64,000 nt of DNA from Dictyostelium discoideum (Eukaryota), in NCBI GenBank assembly GCA_000004695.1, contig CM000152.2, positions 544,001-608,000 on the forward strand. Direction: 5' to 3'. The position numbers and the translations under genes are program-made. Below, one piece after another: positions 5,066 to 44,832 of this stretch. Positions within the stretch are counted from its first letter, which is position 1; each line of letters starts with the position of its first letter. The notes beneath the pieces were generated by a model. The model did not search any database. It had not been told where the DNA came from and was given only the letters and a program-made list of their open reading frames with translations.

Positions 5066-5137
5066 GCCGTGATAGTATAGTGGTAGTACATCAGATTGTG
5101 GCTCTGTTGACCCTGGTTCGATTCCAGGTCGCGGCAC
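5066..5137 (+). tRNA. tRNA-His (anticodon GUG)
   Basis: Cloverleaf: acceptor gccgtga/tcgcggc with one G-U pair; D-arm gtat-agtggta-gtac; anticodon stem tcaga/tctgt; loop ttGTGgc; T-arm cctgg-ttcgatt-ccagg; discriminator A. No encoded G-1 (added post-transcriptionally in eukaryotes). T-run follows immediately. Confidence 0.85.
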
Positions 5138-14840: not shown

Positions 14841-17800
14841 CCTAAACAGTTTTTTTTTTTTTTTTTTTTTTTTCAAAACAGTTTTTTTTTTTTTTTTTTC
14901 ACTCTCTAATTTTTTAAAAAAAAAAACATATAATTTTAAACTAATAAATAAACAACATACAATTTTATACTATAAATTTTATATTATATTTTATAGATGC
15001 ATGCACAATTGATAGTTGTTCAAAAACTTCAGGTTGTGTTCATACCCCAATAAATGTGGATGATAAAAATCCATGTACAATTGATTCATGTATCAAAGGT
15101 TTTATTTCACATACTCAAATCTCTTGTGATGATAAGAATGCTTGTACAATCGATAGTTGTGACTGTTCATCAGGTTGTCAAAATAAACCAATGTCCTGTG
15201 ATGATAATAATCCATGTACCGTAGATTCTTGCAATAATTCAACCGGTTGTCGTAATACCCCAATCAGTGTAGATGATAATAATCCATGCACAATAGATTC
15301 ATGTTCAAAATCAACTGGTGTAGTTCACATTCCAATCAATGTCGACGATCTTAACCCATGTACAATTGATGCATGTACCAAAGAAGGTGGTGTTACTCAT
15401 ACTCCAGTCAATGTTGATGATAATAACAAATGTACCACTGATTCATGTTCGCTATTTACAGGTATAACTCACACTGAAATCTGTTGTGATGATAATAATG
15501 CCTGTACAGATGATTCCTGCTCACCATCAACTGGTTGCGTAAATACCCCAATTTCTTGTGATGACAAAAACCCATGCACCGTAGACTCTTGCAACAATTC
15601 AACTGGTTGCTGTTATACCCCAATCAATGTTGATGACAATAATCCATGTACCATCGATGCCTGTACTAAATCAACAGGTGTCACCCACACTCCAATCAAT
15701 GTCGATGATAATAACCAATGTACAACTGATTCATGTACCAAAGAAGGTGGTGTAACTCATACTCCAGTCAATACTGATGATAACAATCCATGTACTGTTG
15801 ACTCCTGCTCACCATTTACAGGTGTTTCTCACACTCCAATCAATGTTGATGATAATAACAAATGTACAATTGATGCATGTACCAAAGAAGGTGGTGTAAC
15901 TCATACTCCAGTCAACACTGATGATAACAATGCCTGTACCCTTGATTCTTGTTCACCATTAACTGGTGTCACTCATACCCCAATAAACTGTGACGATAAA
16001 AAGGCCTGTACTGTAGATTCATGTTCAAATTCAACTGGTTGCGTAAATACTCCAATTTCCTGTGATGATAATAATCCATGTACTGTTGATACCTGTGATG
16101 ACTCAACCGGTTGTTGCAATACTCCAATCAATGTTGATGATAATAATCCATGTACCGTAGATGCCTGTACCAAATCAACAGGTGTCACTCATACCCCAGT
16201 AAATGTAGATGATAATAACAAATGTACAATTGATGCATGTACCAAAGAAGGTGGTGTAACTCATACTCCAGTCAATACTGATGATAACAATGCCTGTACT
16301 CTTGATAACTGTTCACCATTAACCGGTGTCACTCATACCCCAATAAATTGTGATGATAAAAAGGCCTGTACTGTCGACTCATGTTCAAACTCAACTGGTT
16401 GCGTAAATACTCCAATTTCCTGTGATGATAATAATCCATGTACTGTTGATTCTTGTGATGACATAACTGGTTGTTGCAATACTCCAATCAATGTTGATGA
16501 TAATAATCCATGTACCGTCGATGCCTGTACCAAATCAACAGGTGTCACTCATACCCCAGTAAATGTAGATGATAATAACAAATGTACAATTGATGCATGT
16601 ACCAAAGAAGGTGGTGTAACTCATACTCCAGTCAATACTGATGATAACAATGCCTGTACACTTGATTCCTGTTCACCATCAACTGGTGTTTCCCACACCC
16701 CAATTAACTGTGATGATAGTAATCCATGTACCGTAGACTCATGTTCAAATTCAACCGGTTGTGTAAACACTCCAGTCAATGTTGATGATAATAATCCATG
16801 TACTGTAGATGCTTGTACCAAATCAACAGGTGTCACACATACCCCAGTAAATGTAGATGATAACAACAAATGTACAATTGATGCATGTACCAAAGAAGGT
16901 GGTGTAACTCATACTCCAGTCAACACTGATGATAACAATGCCTGTACAATTGATTCTTGTTCACCATCAACCGGTATTTCCCACACCCCAATCAATTGTG
17001 ATGATAAAAAGGCCTGTACAGTTGATTCATGTTCAAATTCAACTGGTTGTGTAAATACTCCAATTTCCTGTGACGATAATAATCCATGTACTGTTGATTC
17101 TTGCGATGACTTAACTGGTTGTTGCAATACTCCAATCAATGTTGATGATAATAATCCATGTACCATCGATGCCTGTACTAAATCAACAGGTGTTACTCAT
17201 ACCCCAGTCAATGTAGATGATAATAACAAATGTACAATTGATACATGTACCAAAGAAGGTGGTGTAACTCATACTCCAGTCAATACTGATGATAACAATG
17301 CCTGTACCCTTGATTCCTGCTCACCATCAACTGGTGTTTCCCATACCCCAATAAACTGTGATGATAATAATAAATGTACTGTAGATTCATGTTCAAACTC
17401 AACTGGTTGTGTAAATACTCCAATTAACTGTGACGATAGTAATCCATGTACCGTAGACTCATGCAATAATTCAACTGGTTGTGTAAACACTCCAGTCAAT
17501 GTTGATGATAATAATCCATGTACCGTCGATGCCTGTACCAAATCAACAGGTGTTACTCATACCCCAGTCAATGTAGATGATAACAACAAATGTACAATTG
17601 ATGCATGTACCAAAGAAGGTGGTGTAACTCATACCCCAGTCAATACTGATGATAACAATGCCTGTACAATTGATGCATGTACAAAAGAAGGTGGTGTAAC
17701 TCATACTCCAGTCAATACTGATGATAACAATGCTTGTACCCTTGACTCCTGTTCACCATCAACTGGCGTTTCCCACACCCCAATTAACTGTGATGATAGT

Positions 17801-19918
17801 AATCCATGTACCGTAGACTCATGTTCAAATTCAACCGGTTGTTGCAACACTCCAATCAATGTTGATGATAATAATCCATGTACTGTAGATTCATGTACCA
17901 AACCAACAGGTGTCACTCATACCCCAGTCAATGTAGATGATAACAACAAATGTACAATTGATGCATGTACCAAAGAAGGTGGTGTAACTCATACTCCAGT
18001 CAATACTGATGATAACAATGCATGTACCCTTGATTCCTGTTCACCATCAACTGGTATTTCCCACGCTCCAATTAACTGTGATGATAGTAATCCATGTACC
18101 ATAGATTCATGCAATAATTCAACTGGTTGTTGCAACACTCCAATCAATGTTGATGATAATAATCCATGTACCGTAGATTCATGTACTAAATCAGGTGGTG
18201 TCACTCATACTCCAGTCAATGTCGATGATAATAACAAATGTACCACTGATGCATGTACTAAAGAAGGTGGTGTAACTCATACTCCAATCTCTTGTGATGA
18301 TAATAATGCCTGTACAATTGATTCATGTTCAAACTCAACTGGTTGTGTAAACACTCCAATTAGCTGTGATGATAGAAACCCATGTACTGTTGATACATGT
18401 ACAAAAGAAAAAGGTTGTCAACATTCCCCAATCGATACTGATGATAGTAATAAATGTACCATTGATGCTTGTTCTTCAACCACTGGTGTAACTCATACTT
18501 CAATTAACTGTGATGATAACAATGCTTGTACATTCGATTCATGTTCAAACTCAACTGGTTGTGTCAGTACTCCAATTTCATGTGATGATAAAAATCCATG
18601 TACCTTGGATTCTTGTGACAAAAAGACAGGTTGTTGTAATACTCCAATTAATGTTGATGATAATGACAAATGTACCACTGATTCATGTACCAAAGAAGGT
18701 GGTGTAACTCATACTCCAATCTCTTGTGACGATAACAATGCCTGTACAACTGATTCATGTTCAAAATCAACTGGTTGTGTAAATAAACCAATTTCTTGTG
18801 ATGATAGTAATCCATGTACCGTAGACTCATGTTCAAATTCAACCGGTTGTTGCAACACTCCAATCAATGTTGATGATAATAATCCATGTACCACTGACTC
18901 ATGTACCAAATCAGGTGGTGTAACTCATACTCCAGTCAATGTTGATGATAATAACAAATGTACCACAGATTCATGTACCAAAGAAGGTGGTATAACTCAT
19001 ACTCCAATCTCTTGTGATGATAATAATCCATGTACACTTGACTCATGTTCACCAACAACTGGTTGTGTAAATAAACCAATGAATGTTGATGATAATGATG
19101 CATGTACAACCGATACATGTAATAAAGATGGTACCATCACTCATACACCAATCAATACAGATGATAATAACAAATGTACATTAGATGCTTGTTCACCAAA
19201 GACTGGTGTAACTCATACACCAATCAATTGTGATGATGGAAACAAATGTACAATCAATAGTTGTTCACCATCAGTTGGTTGTATCTCAACACCAGTTTCA
19301 TGTCCAAAACCAAAAGATAAATGTTCAATCTCTCAATGTGATTCAGCCAAAGGTTGCATCGAAGTCCCAATGAATTGTACCTCTGATAAATGTAATGAAG
19401 CATCATGTTGTGATGGTGTTTGTACCTCAAAACCAATTAGCTGTCCAAAACCAAAGAATAAGTGTCAAGTTGCAAAATGTGATTTAATTAAAGGTTGTAC
19501 CGTCTCAAATGTAGTATGTGATGATGGTAATGCTTGTACCGAAGATTCATGTTGTTCAGACACTGGTAAATGTCAATTCGAACCAATCAAACTTCCAAAG
19601 AATAAAAACAAATGTATCATTTCAAAATGTGATCCAATTAAAGGTACAATCACCAACAGTACCGTAAACTGTGAATGTGATGACCTTTGTAACATTGGTG
19701 AATGTTGTGAAGATACAGGAAAATGTAATTACAGACAAAAAGATTGTGATGATAATAATCCAAAAACAGCTGATAGTTGCGATTCCAAGACTGGTAAATG
19801 TATTAACAAACCATATAATGTTATCACAAGTGGTTCTAATTTAATCTCTGGTTTAATTGGTGGTCTCATTGGTGGTGGTACAGGAGGTAAAGGTGATTGC
19901 AAAACTTGTAAAAATTAA
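14488..19918 (+). CDS. Giant secreted Cys-rich protein built from ~60 tandem 24-aa Dictyostelium CTDC repeats (ecmA/ecmB-type extracellular matrix/slime-sheath protein family); 3 exons 14488..14551, 14654..14800, 14997..19918
   Basis: Signal peptide MKISIFILLLFISSMVIISVNA. Repeats of form (N/S)(V/C)DDNNPCTxDxCxKxTGVTHTP(I/V), matching the C-T-x-D-x-C Dicty_CTDC consensus. C-terminal ~200 aa has a different Cys pattern (CPKPKDKCSISQCD...). Phase-1 introns with GTATGT/GTAAAA donors; ORF 15056..19918 is open for 1620 codons. Confidence 0.8.
15056..19250 (+). repeat. Coding tandem repeat array, 72-bp unit (24 aa) with higher-order 288/360-bp periodicity
   Basis: Reverse-strand spurious ORFs recur at 360-bp and 288-bp offsets (15973/16333, 16909/17269, 17701/17989); many near-identical blocks, e.g. 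PCTVDACTKSTGVTHTPVNVDDNNKCTIDACTKEGGVTHTPVNTDDNNACTLDSCSP. Confidence 0.85.
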
Positions 19919-20053
19919 ATAACTCTTTTTATTTAATTATATTTTAAAAAAATTCAAAAAAAATTCAAAAAAAAATTCAAGAAAAAAAAAAAACTATTTG
20001 TTTTCTTATCTAATATTTATAATTTTTAAAAATAAAAATTCATTCCAAAAATA

Positions 20054-20091
<38 letters not shown>

Positions 20092-20285
20092 TTTTTCATG
20101 GTGACTTTCACCAAAAAAAACTTGATCTGTAAATTTTGAAATTGTTTTTGGTGAGAATGATTGTTCTTGAGAACAAATAAACATAAGGCTTTCATCAACA
20201 TTATAATTATTTTATGAGAATTTCATTACAAAAAAAAATGAAAAAAAAAAAAAAAAATGAAAAAAAAAAAAAAAAATGAAAAAAA

Positions 20286-20316
<31 letters not shown>

Positions 20317-21589
20317 TGGTGAAATTCGTCAATCATATAAAATAAAATAAATTAAAAAAAAATAAAAAATATAATTTATTATATTTATCACTATAATGTA
20401 AATCAATTTTTTATTTTGGAAATAATTAAAAGTGATTTTTTTAGGGGACTTGTTCTATCGGGAAAAAAAAATTAAAATTTTTTTTTTTTTTTTTTTTTTT
20501 TGTACAACCAGATCAGAAATTTTTTACTTTTTTTGGTTTCTCTGAATCGGTGTAGATCTTTTAATCAAAAAATTCTATTTTATTTTTAGTATAAAAAGTA
20601 ATTTTTTTTTTTTTTTTTTCAGTTGATTCAAAAAAGACAAGGTTATAACTAAATAAGAAAATTAAATAAAAAAAATATTAAATAATTTACACTTTGACAA
20701 AATTAAAGAGGTAATTGTTATTTAATTTTTATTAAAAAAAAAACAAAAAAAATCCAACAAAAAACTAATTAATTGTTTTTTTTAATTAGATATCTTTTAA
20801 AAAATAGGTTGTTTTATTGCAATGTGGGGTTTTTTTTTTTTGATTGATATTTTGTTTAGTTATTAGTTTATTTAGTATGGATTGGTACTAATCCAATTGC
20901 CAGAGAATCAAACGATTTAATTCTTTTTTTTTAGATATATTTTTTAATTCTCAGGCATTGTTGATAGGTAGATTGCATATTAAACAGCTGTTTCACTATA
21001 TAATATATTTTTTTAATAAATAAAAAAAAACTTATTTATACATTAAACACAGAATAAATATGGAAATTTTCAACCAAAGTAAATTTTTAAAATACTTTTT
21101 ATAATAATATTAATAATTTTTACTAATATTAATTTTTATTATAGTTTGATTGGTATAAAACTAAAATCGAAAAATCAAAGCTAAATTATATATTGCTAAA
21201 ATCCCAAACAAAATCAGAAACATAATAAAACAAAATAAAATAAAGTAAAATAAAACAAAATAAAAAAAAATAAAATAAAATAAAGTAAAACAAAATAAAA
21301 CAAATTTATAAATTAAAAATAAAATATTAAACAAATAAACAAAAAAAAAAAACTATTTCCCATTTTTCATTTTTATTTTTTTTTCATTTTCTTTTTTTTA
21401 TTTTTATTTTTTTTTTTTAATTCTTAACTTTTATTAATTATTTCAATTATTTGTATTAATTTAAATTATTTATTTGTATTTTTTAAGATGAGTATATCAT
21501 AACTAAATAAAAAAATATAAAAAAAATAACGCATGGAAGTTTATCATAACTAAATAAAAAAATAAAAAAAAAATAACGCATGAAATCAA

Positions 21590-22050
21590 ACCAACAAACC
21601 TTTTTATCATATCCACCTATGAGGAAATTATCACCTTGTGGATGAATATCGATGGAACTAATCTATCTACAACCAGTGATTAACTTTTTGATTAATTCTT
21701 GTTTCATGAGATCATAGACACGAATTATATTTGATCGACAACAAAGAAGATTGGTTTATTTGGATGGAAATGAGTGACTTGATTTGGAGTTTTACTCTTT
21801 CTAAATGGTGATTGAGTTTCTCTTTTTGATGGATTTTAACTGGACGAGAACCTTCCTTTGGTGATGAAAAGTAGTCACCCTTATAATGCCAAGTTAAATT
21901 CTTTACAGAGAATGGATGATGAATTTCAATACGTACACCTTTTTCCAGGAGTTTTACTGTATCAGAACCAGTGACTTGATACCAATTGACAGATATATTT
22001 TGTTGTTGTTCAGTTGAAGAATAAGCTGGTGGTTTGTACTTAAGATTCAA
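21590..22050 (-). pseudogene. BOP1/Erb1 (ribosome biogenesis WD-repeat protein) pseudogene fragment with two frameshifts and an in-frame stop
   Basis: Minus-strand translation matches the human BOP1 C-terminal region across three frames. LTWHYKGDYFSS...KIHQKEKL matches VTWHGRGDYL...LIHQLSRR; FHPNKPIFFVVDQ matches [63 protein letters not shown] matches [50 protein letters not shown]. A TAG sits where BOP1 has W. Only ~150 codons of a ~700-aa protein, flanked by AT-rich spacer; weaker similarity may extend to 22200. Confidence 0.55.
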
Positions 22051-22463
22051 ACTCTTAAGAGTATTTTTATTTTTATTTTTTTAATTTTAAAATGTACTAT
22101 CAGTGACTTGAAAGGTACAACTATATGATGATAATAATTGAAATTGGAATATTAATGGGTTACCAATTTCAATGACTTTTCCAGAAAATTCACCACACAT
22201 TTTTTTTATTAAATAATACAAATATAGGTTCAATAATATTTAAATTGAAAATGGTTTGTTAACAATTACAATCAATAAGAAATTAGATTATTCAAACACA
22301 ATTAAAAAAAATTAAAAAAAAGATTATGAAAAACAAAAATATTATCATACAATTAAAATTATTAATTTATTATTATTATTTTTTTTTTTTTTTTTTTATA
22401 TTATCATTATTTTTATTATTTTTATTTTCATTTTTAGAATTTTTATTTTTAAATTTTTTATTT

Positions 22464-24419
22464 TTAGATTTTATTTTCTTTTTGTAATTTTTGTAAATGT
22501 AATTTAATATTTCCCAATGCCATAAATGATAAAGTTGGTTCAAGACTACCATAAACGATATCTAAGATTTCAGTGAGTGAAGTTTTACCAGATTTATAAG
22601 CATTTAAGATTTCTTCTTCACGAAGTAAACGATGCTTGATGTAATTATTTAAGAGGACGATTGGATCGAAATTTAAAGGACCATGAGCAGGAATTGCAAC
22701 CTTTGGACAAAGATAATTGATCATACCATGAGTGCTATCTATATATTCAACCATATCACCTGTATGAAAATCCAATACTGAACTACCGAAACCAACAATA
22801 TGATCACCAGCAATCAAAGTTTTACTATTATTCTCAAAAAGACACAAAGAATCATCAGTGTGACCAGGTGTTGAAACTATATGAAAAATTCTATCACCAC
22901 CATTACCAATGTAAAGCTTTTCATTTGTATGACAATCCAATTGTTTAATTTCAGTTGGAGTTTTAATTTCATTTAAAAAGCTATCAACACTCTCTTTATC
23001 CTTTAATTGAAAACCAGAAACTTGTACCTTTTTTAAACCACTTTCAATATTCTTTAAAGTTTTCTCATGAGCATAAATTGTTGCCTCTGGGAAATGTTTC
23101 TCTAAAATACCAATACCTTCCCAATGATCTTTATGATTATGTGTAATGAAAATTGATATATTTTTACCTTCTAATATTTTTTTATTTTCTTCTTCTTCTT
23201 CTTCTTCTTGTTGTTGTTGTTCTTCTTCTCTTTGTTCATTATTAACATTATTTGAATTTTCATCATTTTTAATTTCAATATTATTTTTAATAAACTTTTT
23301 TAAATATTTTAATAATTTCTTTTCTATTATATTACACATATGAATAGAACCTTCTTTATTTGCACCAGGATCAACTAAAAGTATATGAGTATCATTTTGA
23401 GAGATGATTAGATTGGTTGAATTGAATGGATGTAAAGTGTTTGAACGTACTGGTATACTTTCAATATGAGGAGCGAACTCCAATGGTATAGTGATACCAA
23501 GGTTATTTTTATCTTCACTGATGGTCAATAGGTCATTGTTTGTCTTTGAGAATAGTGATAACATCTTTAGGAGATATTGTGTTTCTGGTGTAATGAATTT
23601 ACGATGTGAATTGAATTCCCTCAAGAATTCCATTGGTTCCTTCCATTCCATTGAAATCTCCAATGTTTTCTCTTTGGTACCACCTGATGATGCTGGATCC
23701 GTTGGTGATATTGAATCCACTAAAATAGTCTCCAATTTATTCTTATTTATACAATTACTATCTTTAACAATTATTAAATAATAATCGAAATAACATCTCT
23801 TCACTTGTTCCAAATAATATGGTGTTACCAATGATCCTAAATAATAAATATTATCACGTTTAAATGAATTTTTATTATTAAATACTTTTTCAATTTTATC
23901 TAATTGTAATTGATTTGAATAAAATTTATTATTTAATAATAATTTTTCATTATTACAACAGTTTTTATTTGATAATGAATCTTTTTGTTGTAATTGTTGT
24001 TGTTGTTGTTGTTGTTGTTGCTCATGTAATTGAGTTGGTTCTGGTGATGTTAATGATGGGAAACCAAAGAAACTATGTGGCACAGCTTTATATAATTTAT
24101 TTATATTATTTTTAACCATTAAAACTTTATTATTATTTTCATTGTAAAATAATAAACTAGAGTATGTATTCATTTTATTATTATTATTATTATTATAGGT
24201 ATTATTATTTTTATTATATATTTTATTATTATGACAACTTTCACTATAATATCTTTTTAAAATATCTGTTTTAGGTTGTTGTTTTTGTATTTGTTGAGAA
24301 TTTAATTTAATAATATTGTTTTTTCTAAATATTTTATTACTATTATTTCCTATACTATTACAAATAGAGGTATTTATTTGTACTGTTGTCGAATAAAAAA
24401 AAGAAAAAACCTTTATCAT
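22464..24419 (-). CDS. Metallo-beta-lactamase-fold protein, LACTB2-like, with ~330-aa N/Q-rich low-complexity N-terminal extension
   Basis: HxHxDH motif FITHNHKDHWEG, then TPGHTDDS, GDHIVGFGSSVLDF, PAHGP. C-terminal ILNAYKSGKTSLTEILDIVY...GNIKLHLQKLQKENKI aligns with human LACTB2 (...HNLLLHLKKLEKEGKIF). Single 651-codon ORF. Confidence 0.75.
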   Translation of the reverse strand: MIKVFSFFYSTTVQINTSICNSIGNNSNKIFRKNNIIKLNSQQIQKQQPKTDILKRYYSESCHNNKIYNKNNNTYNNNNNNKMNTYSSLLFYNENNNKVLMVKNNINKLYKAVPHSFFGFPSLTSPEPTQLHEQQQQQQQQQLQQKDSLSNKNCCNNEKLLLNNKFYSNQLQLDKIEKVFNNKNSFKRDNIYYLGSLVTPYYLEQVKRCYFDYYLIIVKDSNCINKNKLETILVDSISPTDPASSGGTKEKTLEISMEWKEPMEFLREFNSHRKFITPETQYLLKMLSLFSKTNNDLLTISEDKNNLGITIPLEFAPHIESIPVRSNTLHPFNSTNLIISQNDTHILLVDPGANKEGSIHMCNIIEKKLLKYLKKFIKNNIEIKNDENSNNVNNEQREEEQQQQEEEEEEENKKILEGKNISIFITHNHKDHWEGIGILEKHFPEATIYAHEKTLKNIESGLKKVQVSGFQLKDKESVDSFLNEIKTPTEIKQLDCHTNEKLYIGNGGDRIFHIVSTPGHTDDSLCLFENNSKTLIAGDHIVGFGSSVLDFHTGDMVEYIDSTHGMINYLCPKVAIPAHGPLNFDPIVLLNNYIKHRLLREEEILNAYKSGKTSLTEILDIVYGSLEPTLSFMALGNIKLHLQKLQKENKI

Positions 24420-24793
24420 TTATTTTAACAACCCACTATTTTAATTTTTTTTTTTTTTTTTATTTTTTAATTATTTTGTTTTTTTTTTTTTTTATTTTAT
24501 TTTTTTTTTTTATTTTTTTTTATTTTTTTTAATACTAATATAGCCTTGGGTTGGTGGGAATATAAAAAAAACAAACCTAAAAAAAAAAAAAAAAACAATT
24601 GTTTAAATTTATCTGTTGAATTTGAGATTATTAGAATTGTTTTTTTTTTTTTTTTTATTTTTTTAAAAAATTAAAAATAATTAAAAAAAGTGAAATTTAA
24701 AAAAAAAACAAAACAAAAATAAAAAAAAAAAAATTAAAATTAGTAATAATAGATATTTTAGATATTTTTATTTAAATTATTAATTTAATATTT

Positions 24794-24914
24794 TTATTTT
24801 AAATTTAAAATTTTATGAAAATCTTTTTGTTCAAATAAATCATTATTGGTACCTAAATTTAAATTATTATTATTATTATTATTATTATTATCATTATTAT
24901 TATTATTATTTTTG

Positions 24915-24958
<44 letters not shown>

Positions 24959-26217
24959 TTTGTCATTATTATTATTACTATTATAATTAAATTTTAAAGC
25001 AGTTTGACCAAAAGTATTATCACCAAAAACATAAATATCATTATTGATTGATTGAGCTAATGTATGTTTAAAACCTGAAGTAATTTTTTTAATATTTGAT
25101 AATGATTGAATTTTCTTTGGTGAATAATGATTCTCATTTGTACCATGACCTAAAGAACCACCATCATTCCAACCCCAAGAATAAACGGAACCATCGGTGG
25201 TGATATAGAATGAATTTGCATGATCACCAGCGAAAATCGATTTAATTTTATTACCAGCAGCATTATCTCCAGTGGATTTAATTCTTTTTGGTATGTAATG
25301 ATTCAAAGTGTCATTCTCGCCATGACCTAATTGACCGAATTCGCCGTATCCAAAAGTGTAGATTTCATTATCATTGGTCAAAAACATTGAATGATAACCT
25401 CCACATGCTATATCCACTATTCTGCTCTCATTATTATTAAGTGTGAACGTTGTTATCTTTTTTGGTGTATAAATATTCTCTTTATCATTCGATCCTACAC
25501 CATGACCCAATGCACCAAAATAACCATTGCCCCAACTATACAATGAACCATCATTACCCAACAATAAATTATGGTCACTACCTGAACAAATCTTTTTAAA
25601 ATCTTTAAATATTGGATCGGTCTCTTTTAAAACTTTAATTGGTTTTGAGTAATATTCATCCTCTGATGGTGACGATGGTGATGATGATTTATCCTTTACC
25701 CTCTCTCTACCACCTAATTGATTCTTATGATTTCTACCCCATCCATAGATACCATCATCTTTAGTTACAACTAAACTATGTTCATATCCACTAACTATTG
25801 ATATAATATTATCATTGAATTTTTCAATTTTATATACCTTTTCATTATTATTATTATTATCGTCGTCATCATCAATGCTTCTACCAATACCCAATACTCC
25901 ATATTTTGATTTACCAATTGAATATAATTGATTATCATCTTTAGTTTGTAATATGATAAAATTACCACCTAAAGAAACATTACTAATCTTTTTATCGTTA
26001 TTAATTTTAATTTTGTTTGGTACTTCTGTGACTAAATTCGAATATAAACCCCAATGATAAAATTCATCGTTTTCATTGATTATACCTGAATGATAGGCAT
26101 TTGCAAATATATCCTTTGCCTTCAACCCATTCAATTTTATTGGTAACTCAGTTTCACTTATAAATTCAAATTCTTCTGTACCATCATCAAAATAAACTAT
26201 TTCATTATCATCTTCGT

Positions 26218-42380: not shown

Positions 42381-43653
42381 ATGGTAGAATCACCAAAAGT
42401 TAGAAGAACATCATCAAGTCAAAGATTATATAATAATAATATTAAATGGGTTACTGTTAGACCATCAACAGATAATAATAATAATAATAGTAGTCAAAAA
42501 AGAAGTAGTAATATAAATATTTTTACAGGTGAAAGCCACCAACCTGAAGAATTTGAAATTGAAAGCCATGGAAGTAGTAGTAGTATTGGTACAAGTTTAG
42601 ATGAATATAATCAACATTATTTACAAGCACAACAACACCAACACCAACACCAACAACATAAACATATATTTGGGTCATCATTTGTTGATTTATCCGGTTT
42701 CACACCAAATAGTTTTGAATTCAAATATCCATCAGTTGGAAATTCTCCAAGTGTAACTGTTTCATCATCATTATCACTATCATCGTCAATCATGGGTACA
42801 AGTTCTGGTAAAAGTAAATTATCATTGGACACTTGGAAACTTGCCAATCCAGATTCCACAATTACAATTAAAAAAATAAAAACAAGTCCACGTGGAAGTA
42901 AAGAAGATATTTTTAATGCTGATTCCGAACAACAACCACAATCATCACCACAATTACAATTGCCATTACATCCACAACCACAACCACAATCACAATCACA
43001 TATAACTAGTAATGCTAATGCACCACAATCTTCATTTAATAAAGTACAACCACAAGGACAAGAACCACAATCAGTTGTAAATAGAACTAGATCAAGACAA
43101 TTATCTAAACCACCAGTTTTCATTCAACAATTTCAAAATCATCATCATCAACAACAACAACAACAACAACAACATCAATTATCAACATCTCAATCATCTG
43201 CATCATCATTAATTTCACATACTCAAAGAAGATTATCAAGAGCAAAACAACATCAAGTTGAATTTAATAATAATGGTAATGGAAATAGTAATAATGGTAA
43301 TGGTGAAAAAGTACATTTACAACATGCATTGGTTTTATATAGTTTTGATGCTGATCTTGAAGAAGAATTAAATTTAATTAAAGATACTACAATCATTGTT
43401 GTTGAACAATGTGCTGACGGTTGGTGGAAAGGTAGACATTTAGATTCCACCAAAGTTGCTACTTTCCCTGCAAATTATGTTAAATTAATACCATCATTAT
43501 TACCACAAAATAATAATAATACTACTACCACATTACCATCATCGTCATCATCAACTAATACTACTACTACCACCACTAATAATAATAATACACCAACATC
43601 AATTGATCAACAAATTCAATTATTAAATAAAAAAAGATCAGAATCACTTTCAA

Positions 43654-43713
<60 letters not shown>

Positions 43714-44832
43714 GTTGTTTTAAAGATGATCCAAATATATTTTTTCCAACATTTAATAATAATTTAAGTAGTAGTAATAGTAGTAGAGTAAATACTGATA
43801 ATGGGTCAATGTCATTTAGTAAATCATCAAGATCAATTAGAAAGAATAGTTTATCATCGTCATTTAGTAGTAGTAGTAATGCATCAGCATCGATTTTATT
43901 CCAAATTAAAGTTTATGTACCACCATTTCATGAACATACAATTATATTAATAGCTGGTGGTGATACATTAAAAGATTTATTAGAGAAACTTGGTAGAAAA
44001 AAGAAAATGTTATTCAATGAATTTAAATGTAAATTAAGATATTACGATTCAAATATTGATTTACCATTGGATACTTTAATTTCATCTTTAAAAGATTCCG
44101 ATAGAAATCCATTAAAATTATTCATGTTATCATTTGACTATATTAATAAATTTAATAATATAACTACAAATATCCAACTTTCAAATTATTTTATAATTTC
44201 ATATAATAATATTAAAAATAATAATAATAATAATAATCATAATAATAATAGTATTTTACAAAAACAATGGGTTATATTTGATAATCAGTCAATTCAAATT
44301 TTTAATAGTCATACAGATCAACAACCAATTAGAATTATTGGATTGAAATATAGTAGTGTGAAACACTCAAATTCTTCTCCAAATTGTTTTATTGTTAAAA
44401 CTCCATTTAGTTTATTTAAATTCACTCATGACTATTTTAATATCGTTAATCAATGGATTGATACAATTGAGCAATCTAGGGAATACCAAGATGGTAATCC
44501 AAATTTAAAAAGAAAACAAAAGAAATTAATTATTAAATCATCAGATTCTTTATCGAATACAACTTCTTCATTATCTTTCTCTGGTCATTTCCCACCACCA
44601 ATTGATAGAAAACAACAAATTCTTGAAATTAGAAATAAAGAAATTAATAGAGTTTGTGTTGACTGTTGTTCAAAAGATCCTGAATGGGCTTCAATCTCAT
44701 TAGGTTGTTTCTTATGTGATACTTGTTGTGGTATTCATCAAAAAGTACTTCCAAATTATTCTGAAGTTTTATCAGTAATTTTAGATGATCAATGGGAAGA
44801 TATTCATATTAATGTAAGTTGAAAATAATTAA

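Follow-up and report, generated by a model that had tools for sequence, protein, structure and literature searches.

A decaying bop1 fragment joined to a polymorphic repeat in an intergenic spacer of Dictyostelium discoideum

The subject of this analysis is a stretch of 64,000 nucleotides of the Dictyostelium discoideum genome (assembly GCA_000004695.1, contig CM000152.2, positions 544,001 to 608,000 of the forward strand), which is called the window in the following and is numbered from its first letter. Between two convergent genes it carries a stranded piece of bop1, an essential gene of ribosome assembly. A base-level alignment to the intact parent delimits the bop1-derived DNA to positions 22063-21583 of the minus strand (481 nt), and we regard it as close to certain that this DNA is a bop1 pseudogene fragment. 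It is joined directly to a dispersed non-coding repeat, here named X, which in some isolates also lies beside bop1 itself. For its origin we favour, at about even probability or slightly below, a DNA-level ectopic repair with template switching, which would have read out of a bop1-linked copy of X. A first-pass annotation, made from the letters of the window and their open reading frames (ORFs), had already placed a frameshifted BOP1/Erb1 fragment in an intergenic spacer at this site, and the spacer turned out to be 2545 bp long.

The parent gene encodes the AX4 protein XP_640451.1/Q54TD8, named "Ribosome biogenesis protein BOP1 homolog" (833 residues). Word-index protein searches with the conceptual peptide or a short piece of BOP1 yielded nothing but short proteins and not the parent, which was reached by means of an exhaustive HMMER search; this led to the full-length BOP1 of Polysphondylium violaceum and from there to the named orthologs, including that of D. 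discoideum. Parent and orthologs carry the BOP1NT domain (PF08145). In the independent chromosome-level AX4-type assembly GCA_054883475.1, bop1 occupies positions 5,075,955-5,078,563 of CM142509.1. The fragment lies on the same chromosome about 4.4 Mb away, so that the intact paralog presumed in the first pass does exist elsewhere. The gene order around the parent (UQ_con, La, a gene for 175 residues, bop1, DEAD-box helicase) is conserved in eight genomes.

Upon translation of the minus strand, BOP1-like peptides appear spread over different frames. With D. discoideum BOP1 as query, tblastn gave E=2.5e-70, and the segments in its three frames were 81, 91, and 92% identical in amino acids; at the nucleotide level, blastn found 92.5-92.7% identity to the parent gene over 468 columns. 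A frame-corrected peptide of 154 residues matched the Erb1/BOP1 chains of the PDB with E=3.6e-35 to about 6e-30, whereas its best non-Erb1 WD40 match, coatomer alpha, reached only E=2.5e-3. The similarity is therefore specific for BOP1 and not one of generic WD40 motifs, and the homology to the C-terminal WD region that had been noticed originally is borne out. Pfam alone recognises just a WD40 repeat at threshold.

The fragment covers parent codons 526-536 and approximately 581-734 of 833, which amounts to about 165 codons or ~20% of the gene. It has neither the promoter-proximal part of the gene nor its 3' end, where the final 99 codons, the stop codon, and the adjoining 3' flank are missing, and it ends in repeat X, not in a poly(A) tail. 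When the full-length parent was compared by tblastn and blastn with the whole 64-kb window, neither the BOP1NT domain nor any other piece of bop1 was found; the remainder of the gene is absent, as had been claimed, and no full-length gene can be rebuilt here by invoking overlooked introns. The extent of 21590-22200 proposed earlier has to be corrected, as the stretch upstream of 22063 is without detectable bop1 homology. An extension into 22064-22260, suspected by eye, was ruled out by shuffling tests, which detected no homology in this interval (DNA z=-1.3, protein z=0.3).

Deletions and stop codons disable the copy (Table 1). Two direct CAAACC motifs lie 134 nt apart in the parent, and the fragment retains one of them. 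Taken together, the deletions leave the bop1 homology in four frame contexts; the frame jumps described in the first pass are real, only their count of three was too low. Likewise, the reported TAG is present, but the parent has a tyrosine at this site, tryptophan being found only in the two yeast Erb1 sequences aligned; moreover, there are three stops and not one.

Table 1. Features of the bop1 fragment, of repeat X, and of their surroundings in the window. Lesions are given relative to the parent gene.
Feature	Positions	Strand	Remarks
Upstream bop1 piece	22063-22031	-	residues 526-536, YSLEVESEVQT to YS*EFES*VQT (asterisks are stops); 30/33 nt match; colinear with main block
Main bop1 block	22030-21583	-	448 nt, residues ~581-734, WD40 region; 95.2% identity over ungapped columns
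134-nt deletion, frameshifting	junction 22036-22031 (retained CAAACC)	-	parent codons 537 to ~581 gone
6-nt deletion, in frame	21867/21866	-	from alignment to parent
7-nt deletion, frameshifting	21827/21826	-	from alignment to parent
1-nt deletion, frameshifting	21733/21732	-	from alignment to parent
Stop TAA	22057-22055	-	in upstream piece
Stop TAA	22042-22040	-	in upstream piece
Stop TAG	21665-21663	-	from TAC (Tyr) of the D. discoideum parent
Filler, 133 nt	22196-22064	-	between native left flank and bop1 pieces; provides start codon and exon 1 of the DDB_G0278251 model; A-rich end; no counterpart in ACTFIW
Repeat X, window copy (X_w)	~21584-20059	-	~1.5 kb, non-coding, ~15% GC, A-run at 3' end
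Two head-to-tail 47-nt units (TTCCATGCGTT...ATGATATAC)	21491-21537 and 21538-21584	-	94% identical; 5' end of X
Body of X_w	21490-20318	-	colinear with X at the ACTFIR and ACTFIW bop1 loci and with X_w of ACTFIW
A(29) run	20317-20289	- (T-run on +)	homology to bop1-linked X copies stops here
~200-bp segment	20288-20091	-	between A(29) and A(32); only in AX4-type X_w
Terminal A(32) run	20090-20059	-	end of inserted block
DDB_G0278251 model	22200-20516	-	span from tblastn mapping of the AX4 protein
DDB_G0278251 exon 1	22200-22108	-	ATG and 31 codons, unrelated to bop1
DDB_G0278251 exon 2	22053-21796	-	one frame of the bop1 block
DDB_G0278251 exon 3	20557-20516	-	14 codons, 1.2 kb away, within repeat X
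Dicty_CTDC repeat protein gene	15056-19918	+	one side of spacer
Metallo-beta-lactamase-fold gene DDB_G0278253	24419-22464	-	other side of spacer
tRNA-His (GTG)	5066-5137	+	sole tRNA/Rfam match in the window; 15 kb from fragment

That the finding is an artefact, be it a chance WD40-like resemblance or a chimera in the reference assembly, has a vanishingly small probability. Nothing but the generally low-complexity surroundings speaks for it, whereas the nucleotide identity to the species' own bop1 is 95% over ~450 nt and the protein match is BOP1-specific. Moreover, positions 19000-25000 of the window are 99.8% identical to CM142509.1, where the arrangement of the fragment is reproduced at 99.7-99.8% identity (~649,331-650,034), in opposite orientation to the parent bop1.

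In order to place the copy in time, its substitutions were compared in an alignment of nine sequences with 445 clean columns. The fragment differs from three D. discoideum alleles at 19-20 positions (4.3-4.5%), from D. cf. discoideum at 23 (5.2%), from D. citrinum, D. dimigraforme, and D. firmibasis at 42-51 (9.4-11.5%), and from D. purpureum at 96 (21.6%). All 16 polarisable substitutions fell on the branch of the fragment and none on the parental branch; 15 of them are non-synonymous, one created a stop, and none is synonymous. For the functional orthologs of D. discoideum and D. citrinum, the same columns gave 28 synonymous and 3 non-synonymous changes (Fisher p=6e-10 versus the fragment), and the substitution pattern of the fragment contains no sign of purifying selection. 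Eight sites are fixed for a difference from D. citrinum, D. dimigraforme, and D. firmibasis, and at all eight the state of D. discoideum is found in the fragment. D. cf. discoideum is set apart from all three D. discoideum alleles at five sites; the fragment agrees with D. discoideum at four of these, and two of the four shared states (alignment columns 242 and 452) are clearly derived. A neighbour-joining tree places the fragment inside D. discoideum sensu stricto, beside the alleles of the genomes ACTFIR and ACTFIW, which bear X at bop1; a derived G at column 252 is common to the fragment and these two. Pattern and placement together indicate a young, species-specific, unconstrained copy. 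The fragment is a neutrally decaying, non-functional partial DNA copy, which would play no part in ribosome biogenesis.

Two gene models have nevertheless been laid over it. In AX4 it is covered by a "hypothetical protein DDB_G0278251" of 131 residues (XP_642241.1, UniProt Q54YG1). The model of the second assembly, ACTFIT_010004 (133 residues), is incompatible with the former, and its introns skip the frameshifts and the TAG. We conclude that both models are prediction artefacts over a pseudogene. Alternatively, DDB_G0278251 could be a genuine gene for a WD-like protein, or the fragment could act as a functional RNA, i.e. an antisense or small interfering RNA regulating bop1. This is highly improbable, even though the protein is annotated in AX4 and in a second assembly, and even though read-through of either strand is conceivable for a fragment situated downstream of, and codirectional with, the metallo-beta-lactamase-fold gene and opposite the convergent CTDC gene. 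The two annotations assign different exons, and their "introns" either skip frameshifts or reach 1.2 kb into X; Pfam finds no match for the AX4 protein and only a sub-threshold WD40 for that of ACTFIT_010004; and some 1.5 WD40 blades are insufficient for a propeller. Neither ACTFIW nor D. cf. discoideum has the segment, the lack of purifying selection argues in the same direction, and Rfam scans, both at gathering threshold and permissive, found nothing in the fragment region or in X. No mention of the locus tag DDB_G0278251 or of a Dictyostelium BOP1 pseudogene was found in the literature searched.

The first of two 47-nt units at the 5' end of X_w is joined directly to bop1 codon 734, with a TT microhomology at 21583/21584. 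In the first pass, this pair had been seen as a 40-bp direct repeat (21496-21582) flanking the fragment and possibly marking a transposon-mediated capture. A direct repeat it is, yet one of 47-nt units spanning 21491-21584, and it lies on one side of the fragment only. Homology to the 5' end of the bop1-linked X shows that both units belong to X itself and hence are no footprints of a transposon; as X is in turn linked to bop1, the idea of a capture associated with a repeat survives in this form. The other copies of X look like two different deletions of the ~200-bp segment between the A-runs of the AX4-type X_w, as judged from their alignment. An ORF of 52 residues (20026-20184, minus strand) overlaps this segment. 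Past the A(32) run, AX4, ACTFIW, and D. cf. discoideum all return to native sequence (TTAATTATTTT.GGAATGA).

X itself, a non-coding block of ~1.2-1.5 kb, is poor in diagnostic features. A search for terminal inverted repeats (TIRs) gave low-complexity matches of A/T-runs only, and its coding capacity is limited to short low-complexity ORFs. Comparison with the empty site of D. cf. discoideum revealed no clean target-site duplication (TSD) of X or of the insert, where the AT-rich flanks could hide short ones. The terminal A-run is ambiguous, as runs of 20-30 nt are commonplace in this genome. A 21-mer specific for X occurred, among the loci fetched, only at the bop1 loci of ACTFIR and ACTFIW and at the AX4-type window locus, and it had no match in metagenome contigs.

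The distribution of X was followed at the bop1 loci of ACTFIR (L001), ACTFIW (L008), and the AX4-type genome (L005), and at the window loci of the AX4-type genome (L003), ACTFIW (L010), and D. cf. discoideum (L011), the last two having been reached via a 90% cluster of the metallo-beta-lactamase-fold protein. X extends over ~6892-8165 in L001, ~6880-8200 in L008, and ~9225-10435 in L010. Window positions ~21574-20290 match ~1.27 kb downstream of bop1 in ACTFIR with 89% identity over ungapped columns. This bop1-linked copy, X_b, starts 240 bp past the bop1 stop, has the same orientation as bop1, and ends in an A-run of ~28 nt. The spacer between bop1 and the helicase gene measures 1760 bp in ACTFIR and 1816 bp in ACTFIW, which alone have X there; it measures 487 bp in the AX4-type genome, 610 bp in D. 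cf. discoideum, 259 bp in D. citrinum, 318 bp in D. dimigraforme, 300 bp in D. firmibasis, and 424 bp in D. purpureum, all of them without X beside bop1. These lengths indicate that X is a discrete insertion, polymorphic within D. discoideum. The idea that X is ordinary 3' flank of bop1, copied in a simple segmental duplication, was ruled out, because X is missing from the AX4-type parent locus and from six other genomes.

At the window locus, the spacer of D. cf. discoideum has just 443 bp and is free of both X and bop1 sequence; the entire block of ~2.15 kb is thus an insertion, and X is not native to this site either. X therefore occupies two unrelated loci on chromosome 3, with empty sites at both among the genomes compared. 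In ACTFIW, the spacer has 1607 bp and contains X; absent are window positions 22193-21492, i.e. 702 bp consisting of the 133-nt filler, both bop1 pieces, and two full 47-nt units. Here, the shared left flank ...AAAAAAAATGTG(T/A)GG passes straight into the 5' end of X, (A)TTCATCTTTAAAAAT, which corresponds to the window from 21491 onward, so that the 702 bp specific for AX4 are placed precisely between the shared left flank and the 5' end of X_w. In a four-way alignment of X with 923 common columns, 46 sites separate the X_w pair from the X_b pair and 2 are in conflict; the distances are 7.8% between the X_w copies, 9-10% between X_w and X_b, and 2.1% between the X_b copies. This grouping indicates that X_w is orthologous in AX4 and ACTFIW and that X_b is an old paralogue. 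Note that X is present at the window locus of ACTFIW independently of bop1; the adjoining X is consequently no proof that bop1 flank was copied along.

The bop1 pieces lie at the 5' edge of X_w, are oriented as bop1 is to X_b, and share a derived site with the X_b-bearing alleles. X thus links the window locus with bop1, and the chance of a fortuitous juxtaposition is negligible. Of the two origins named in the first pass, segmental duplicate or retro-copy, the decaying duplicate stands; a DNA-level origin is favoured and a retro-copy is unlikely.

In the template-switch model that we prefer, X would already have resided at the window locus as X_w, as it does in ACTFIW without bop1. A DNA break at the 5' junction of X_w would have been subject to ectopic repair templated on X_b, on the same chromosome. 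Repair synthesis would then have left X_b toward bop1 and undergone several microhomology-mediated template switches, by synthesis-dependent strand annealing (SDSA) or a process resembling microhomology-mediated break-induced replication (MMBIR). The first switch would be a back-slip of 47 nt, generating the tandem unit, the second a skip of ~540 nt to codon 734, and the third a skip of 134 nt between the CAAACC motifs. Finally, the product would have been joined to the other broken end via the 133 nt of filler, and the captured pieces would later have gained point mutations and small deletions. CAAACC and TT are the microhomologies seen at the junctions, and the model can do without coinciding breakpoints at either the right end of X or the left flank.

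Several points weigh against it. A search of the 5' part of the AX4 X_w for a conversion tract resembling X_b was negative; this is compatible with an invasion at the extreme end of X, lends no positive support, and does not discriminate the model from a co-duplication. The jump from X to bop1 sets out from the extreme 5' end of an X unit, a position for which a chromosomal template offers no obvious explanation. Because the AX4-type genome lacks X_b, the event must be placed in a genome with an X_b haplotype, the loci having reassorted later. Two independent insertions of X, by whatever way it moves, are needed. The source of the filler was found neither in the 11 loci nor elsewhere in the window. 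Finally, divergence estimates in DNA this rich in AT are too noisy to order the events, whose direction and number we infer from the product only.

The main rival is a single co-duplication, in which a contiguous stretch running from bop1 codon 526 through the 3' flank to the end of X_b was copied into the spacer, thereby creating X_w; in the AX4 lineage, 134 nt and ~540 nt would then have been deleted and the 47-nt unit duplicated, and ACTFIW would later have lost 702 bp. We consider this possible but distinctly less probable. It accounts well for the colinear arrangement in the same orientation at both loci, and X need have come in from elsewhere only once. It also agrees with the greater completeness of the AX4 X_w at both ends, where the ~200-bp 3' segment is best read as ancestral, and with the full 5' units, which AX4 and X_b have and the X_w of ACTFIW does not. 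In addition, the per-branch divergence of the fragment (3.6-4.5%) is about half of the ~10% distance between X_w and X_b. However, the copy would have to end exactly at the terminal A-run of X, the 540-nt deletion at the 5' end of X, and the deletion in ACTFIW would need to have its limits precisely at the insertion junction and the last full unit. Moreover, X_b would have to predate X_w, yet it is absent from the AX4-type genome, from D. cf. discoideum, and from four other species.

A route via RNA is unlikely. Here, a read-through transcript of bop1 and X_b would have been reverse-transcribed and truncated within bop1 (5' transduction), or reverse transcriptase would have switched from X RNA to bop1 mRNA. 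Long A-runs do terminate X at both loci, with homology stopping there; the fragment is 5'-truncated; and the junction with bop1 falls precisely on the 5' terminus of an X unit, the terminal unit being repeated, as if the template molecule had ended there. Reverse transcriptase genes are also abundant in D. discoideum (PMC4683709). On the other hand, this species is without processed pseudogenes according to Siol et al. 2011 (PMC3159450), and the active non-LTR (long terminal repeat) element TRE5-A depends on a 3' C-module of its own and inserts ~50 bp upstream of tRNA genes (PMC3159450). There is no tRNA gene within 15 kb of the fragment, nor one at the bop1 loci of ACTFIR, ACTFIW, and the AX4-type genome or at the AX4-type window locus. 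No target-site duplication is visible, and A-runs of such length are, as said, commonplace. The sole intron of the parent follows residue 209 and thus lies upstream of the copied interval, which leaves no intron loss to be scored. For a pure template switch, the position of X_b beside bop1 would be an unexplained coincidence. Likewise rather improbable is the wider proposal that X is an uncharacterised, recently active, non-autonomous mobile element, which inserts away from tRNA genes and carried the bop1 fragment along by 5' transduction or by a switch of the reverse transcriptase at the 5' end of X RNA. If true, a genome reported to have no processed pseudogenes would here gain its first retro-derived gene fragment.

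By kind, the fragment is a duplicated, non-processed pseudogene fragment, i.e. an ordinary object and not a new kind of system. As in other such cases, it is a partial copy of a functional parent located elsewhere, has frameshifts, stops, and a neutral pattern, and is devoid of a promoter and of a complete ORF. It differs in that ~20% of the gene is present in two pieces with no large segmental duplication, and in that it is linked in position to the border of a repeat, which in some haplotypes also stands beside the parent. Less ordinary are the repeat-mediated origin, the polymorphism across isolates, and the cataloguing as a protein. Functional BOP1/Erb1 proteins, consisting of BOP1NT and a WD40 propeller, share with the fragment the WD40 region (81-92% amino acid identity per frame segment to the D. 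discoideum protein); the fragment lacks BOP1NT, most blades, the start, and the C-terminus, and bears disabling lesions.

Among known repair pathways, SDSA with template switching and MMBIR or fork stalling and template switching (FoSTeS) leave similar products, with short microhomologies such as CAAACC and TT at the junctions and several jumps in colinear order along a single donor locus. In addition, a stretch is duplicated by a local back-slip, filler DNA marks the far junction, and a dispersed repeat provides the homology for entry. The difference is that the process is deduced here from the product alone and that no conversion tract was detected in X. To our knowledge, template-switching repair has not been documented in Dictyostelium.

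Pack-MULEs, Helitrons, and L1 elements with 5' or 3' transduction likewise combine a host gene fragment with a dispersed, insertion-polymorphic repeat and, as here, the source gene stands directly beside another copy of the repeat. Unlike them, X has no TIRs, ORF, or clear TSD, and the fragment lies outside of X and not inside. More generally, X resembles transposable elements in its occurrence at non-homologous sites and its presence/absence polymorphism against empty sites; it lacks diagnostic TIRs, LTRs, TSDs, and coding capacity. The known poly(A) retroelements of Dictyostelium target tRNA genes, the TRE5/TRE3 elements integrating within ~50-150 bp of them (PMC3159450); no tRNA gene is near here. 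The Dictyostelium DNA transposon families Tdd, DDT, and thug, and the retroelements, are listed in PMC5633606.

Some observations concern the surroundings. The ORF of the metallo-beta-lactamase-fold gene runs unbroken through 651 residues, and models in two other D. discoideum assemblies have 651-656 residues; the AX4 model DDB_G0278253 (XP_642242.1) has only 569, which is probably due to a spurious intron or a wrong start. In the giant Dicty_CTDC protein, 61 repeats were detected. Its gene calls comprise 1696 residues in the AX4-type genome and D. cf. discoideum and 1864 in ACTFIW, which suggests a polymorphism of repeat number. At 43133-43173, within an ORF of 813 residues (42381-44822), there is an exact match of 41 nt to the 5' part of the bop1 coding region (positions 4463-4503 of L005), assumed to be a shared simple codon repeat and not homology. 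Over the 4 kb of sequence preceding bop1, the divergence of ACTFIR and ACTFIW from the AX4-type sequence is ~3.1-3.3%, not far short of the 4.6-4.8% found between either of them and D. cf. discoideum, while the two are only 0.8% apart; this points to a deep haplotype structure within what is named D. discoideum.

Duplicated pieces of genes are uncommon in this compact genome, from which processed pseudogenes are reported to be absent. DDB_G0278251 (Q54YG1) and ACTFIT_010004 should be re-annotated as a bop1 pseudogene fragment, which removes a spurious "orphan" protein from the proteome; reads and probes for bop1 residues 581-734 will cross-map to the fragment at 95% identity. The series of loci, consisting of an empty site, a site with the repeat only, one with repeat and fragment, and a donor haplotype with X beside the parent, is unusually informative. 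It makes X an insertion-polymorphic element worth characterising, and the locus may serve as a tractable natural example of a dispersed repeat mediating the ectopic capture of pieces of an essential gene.

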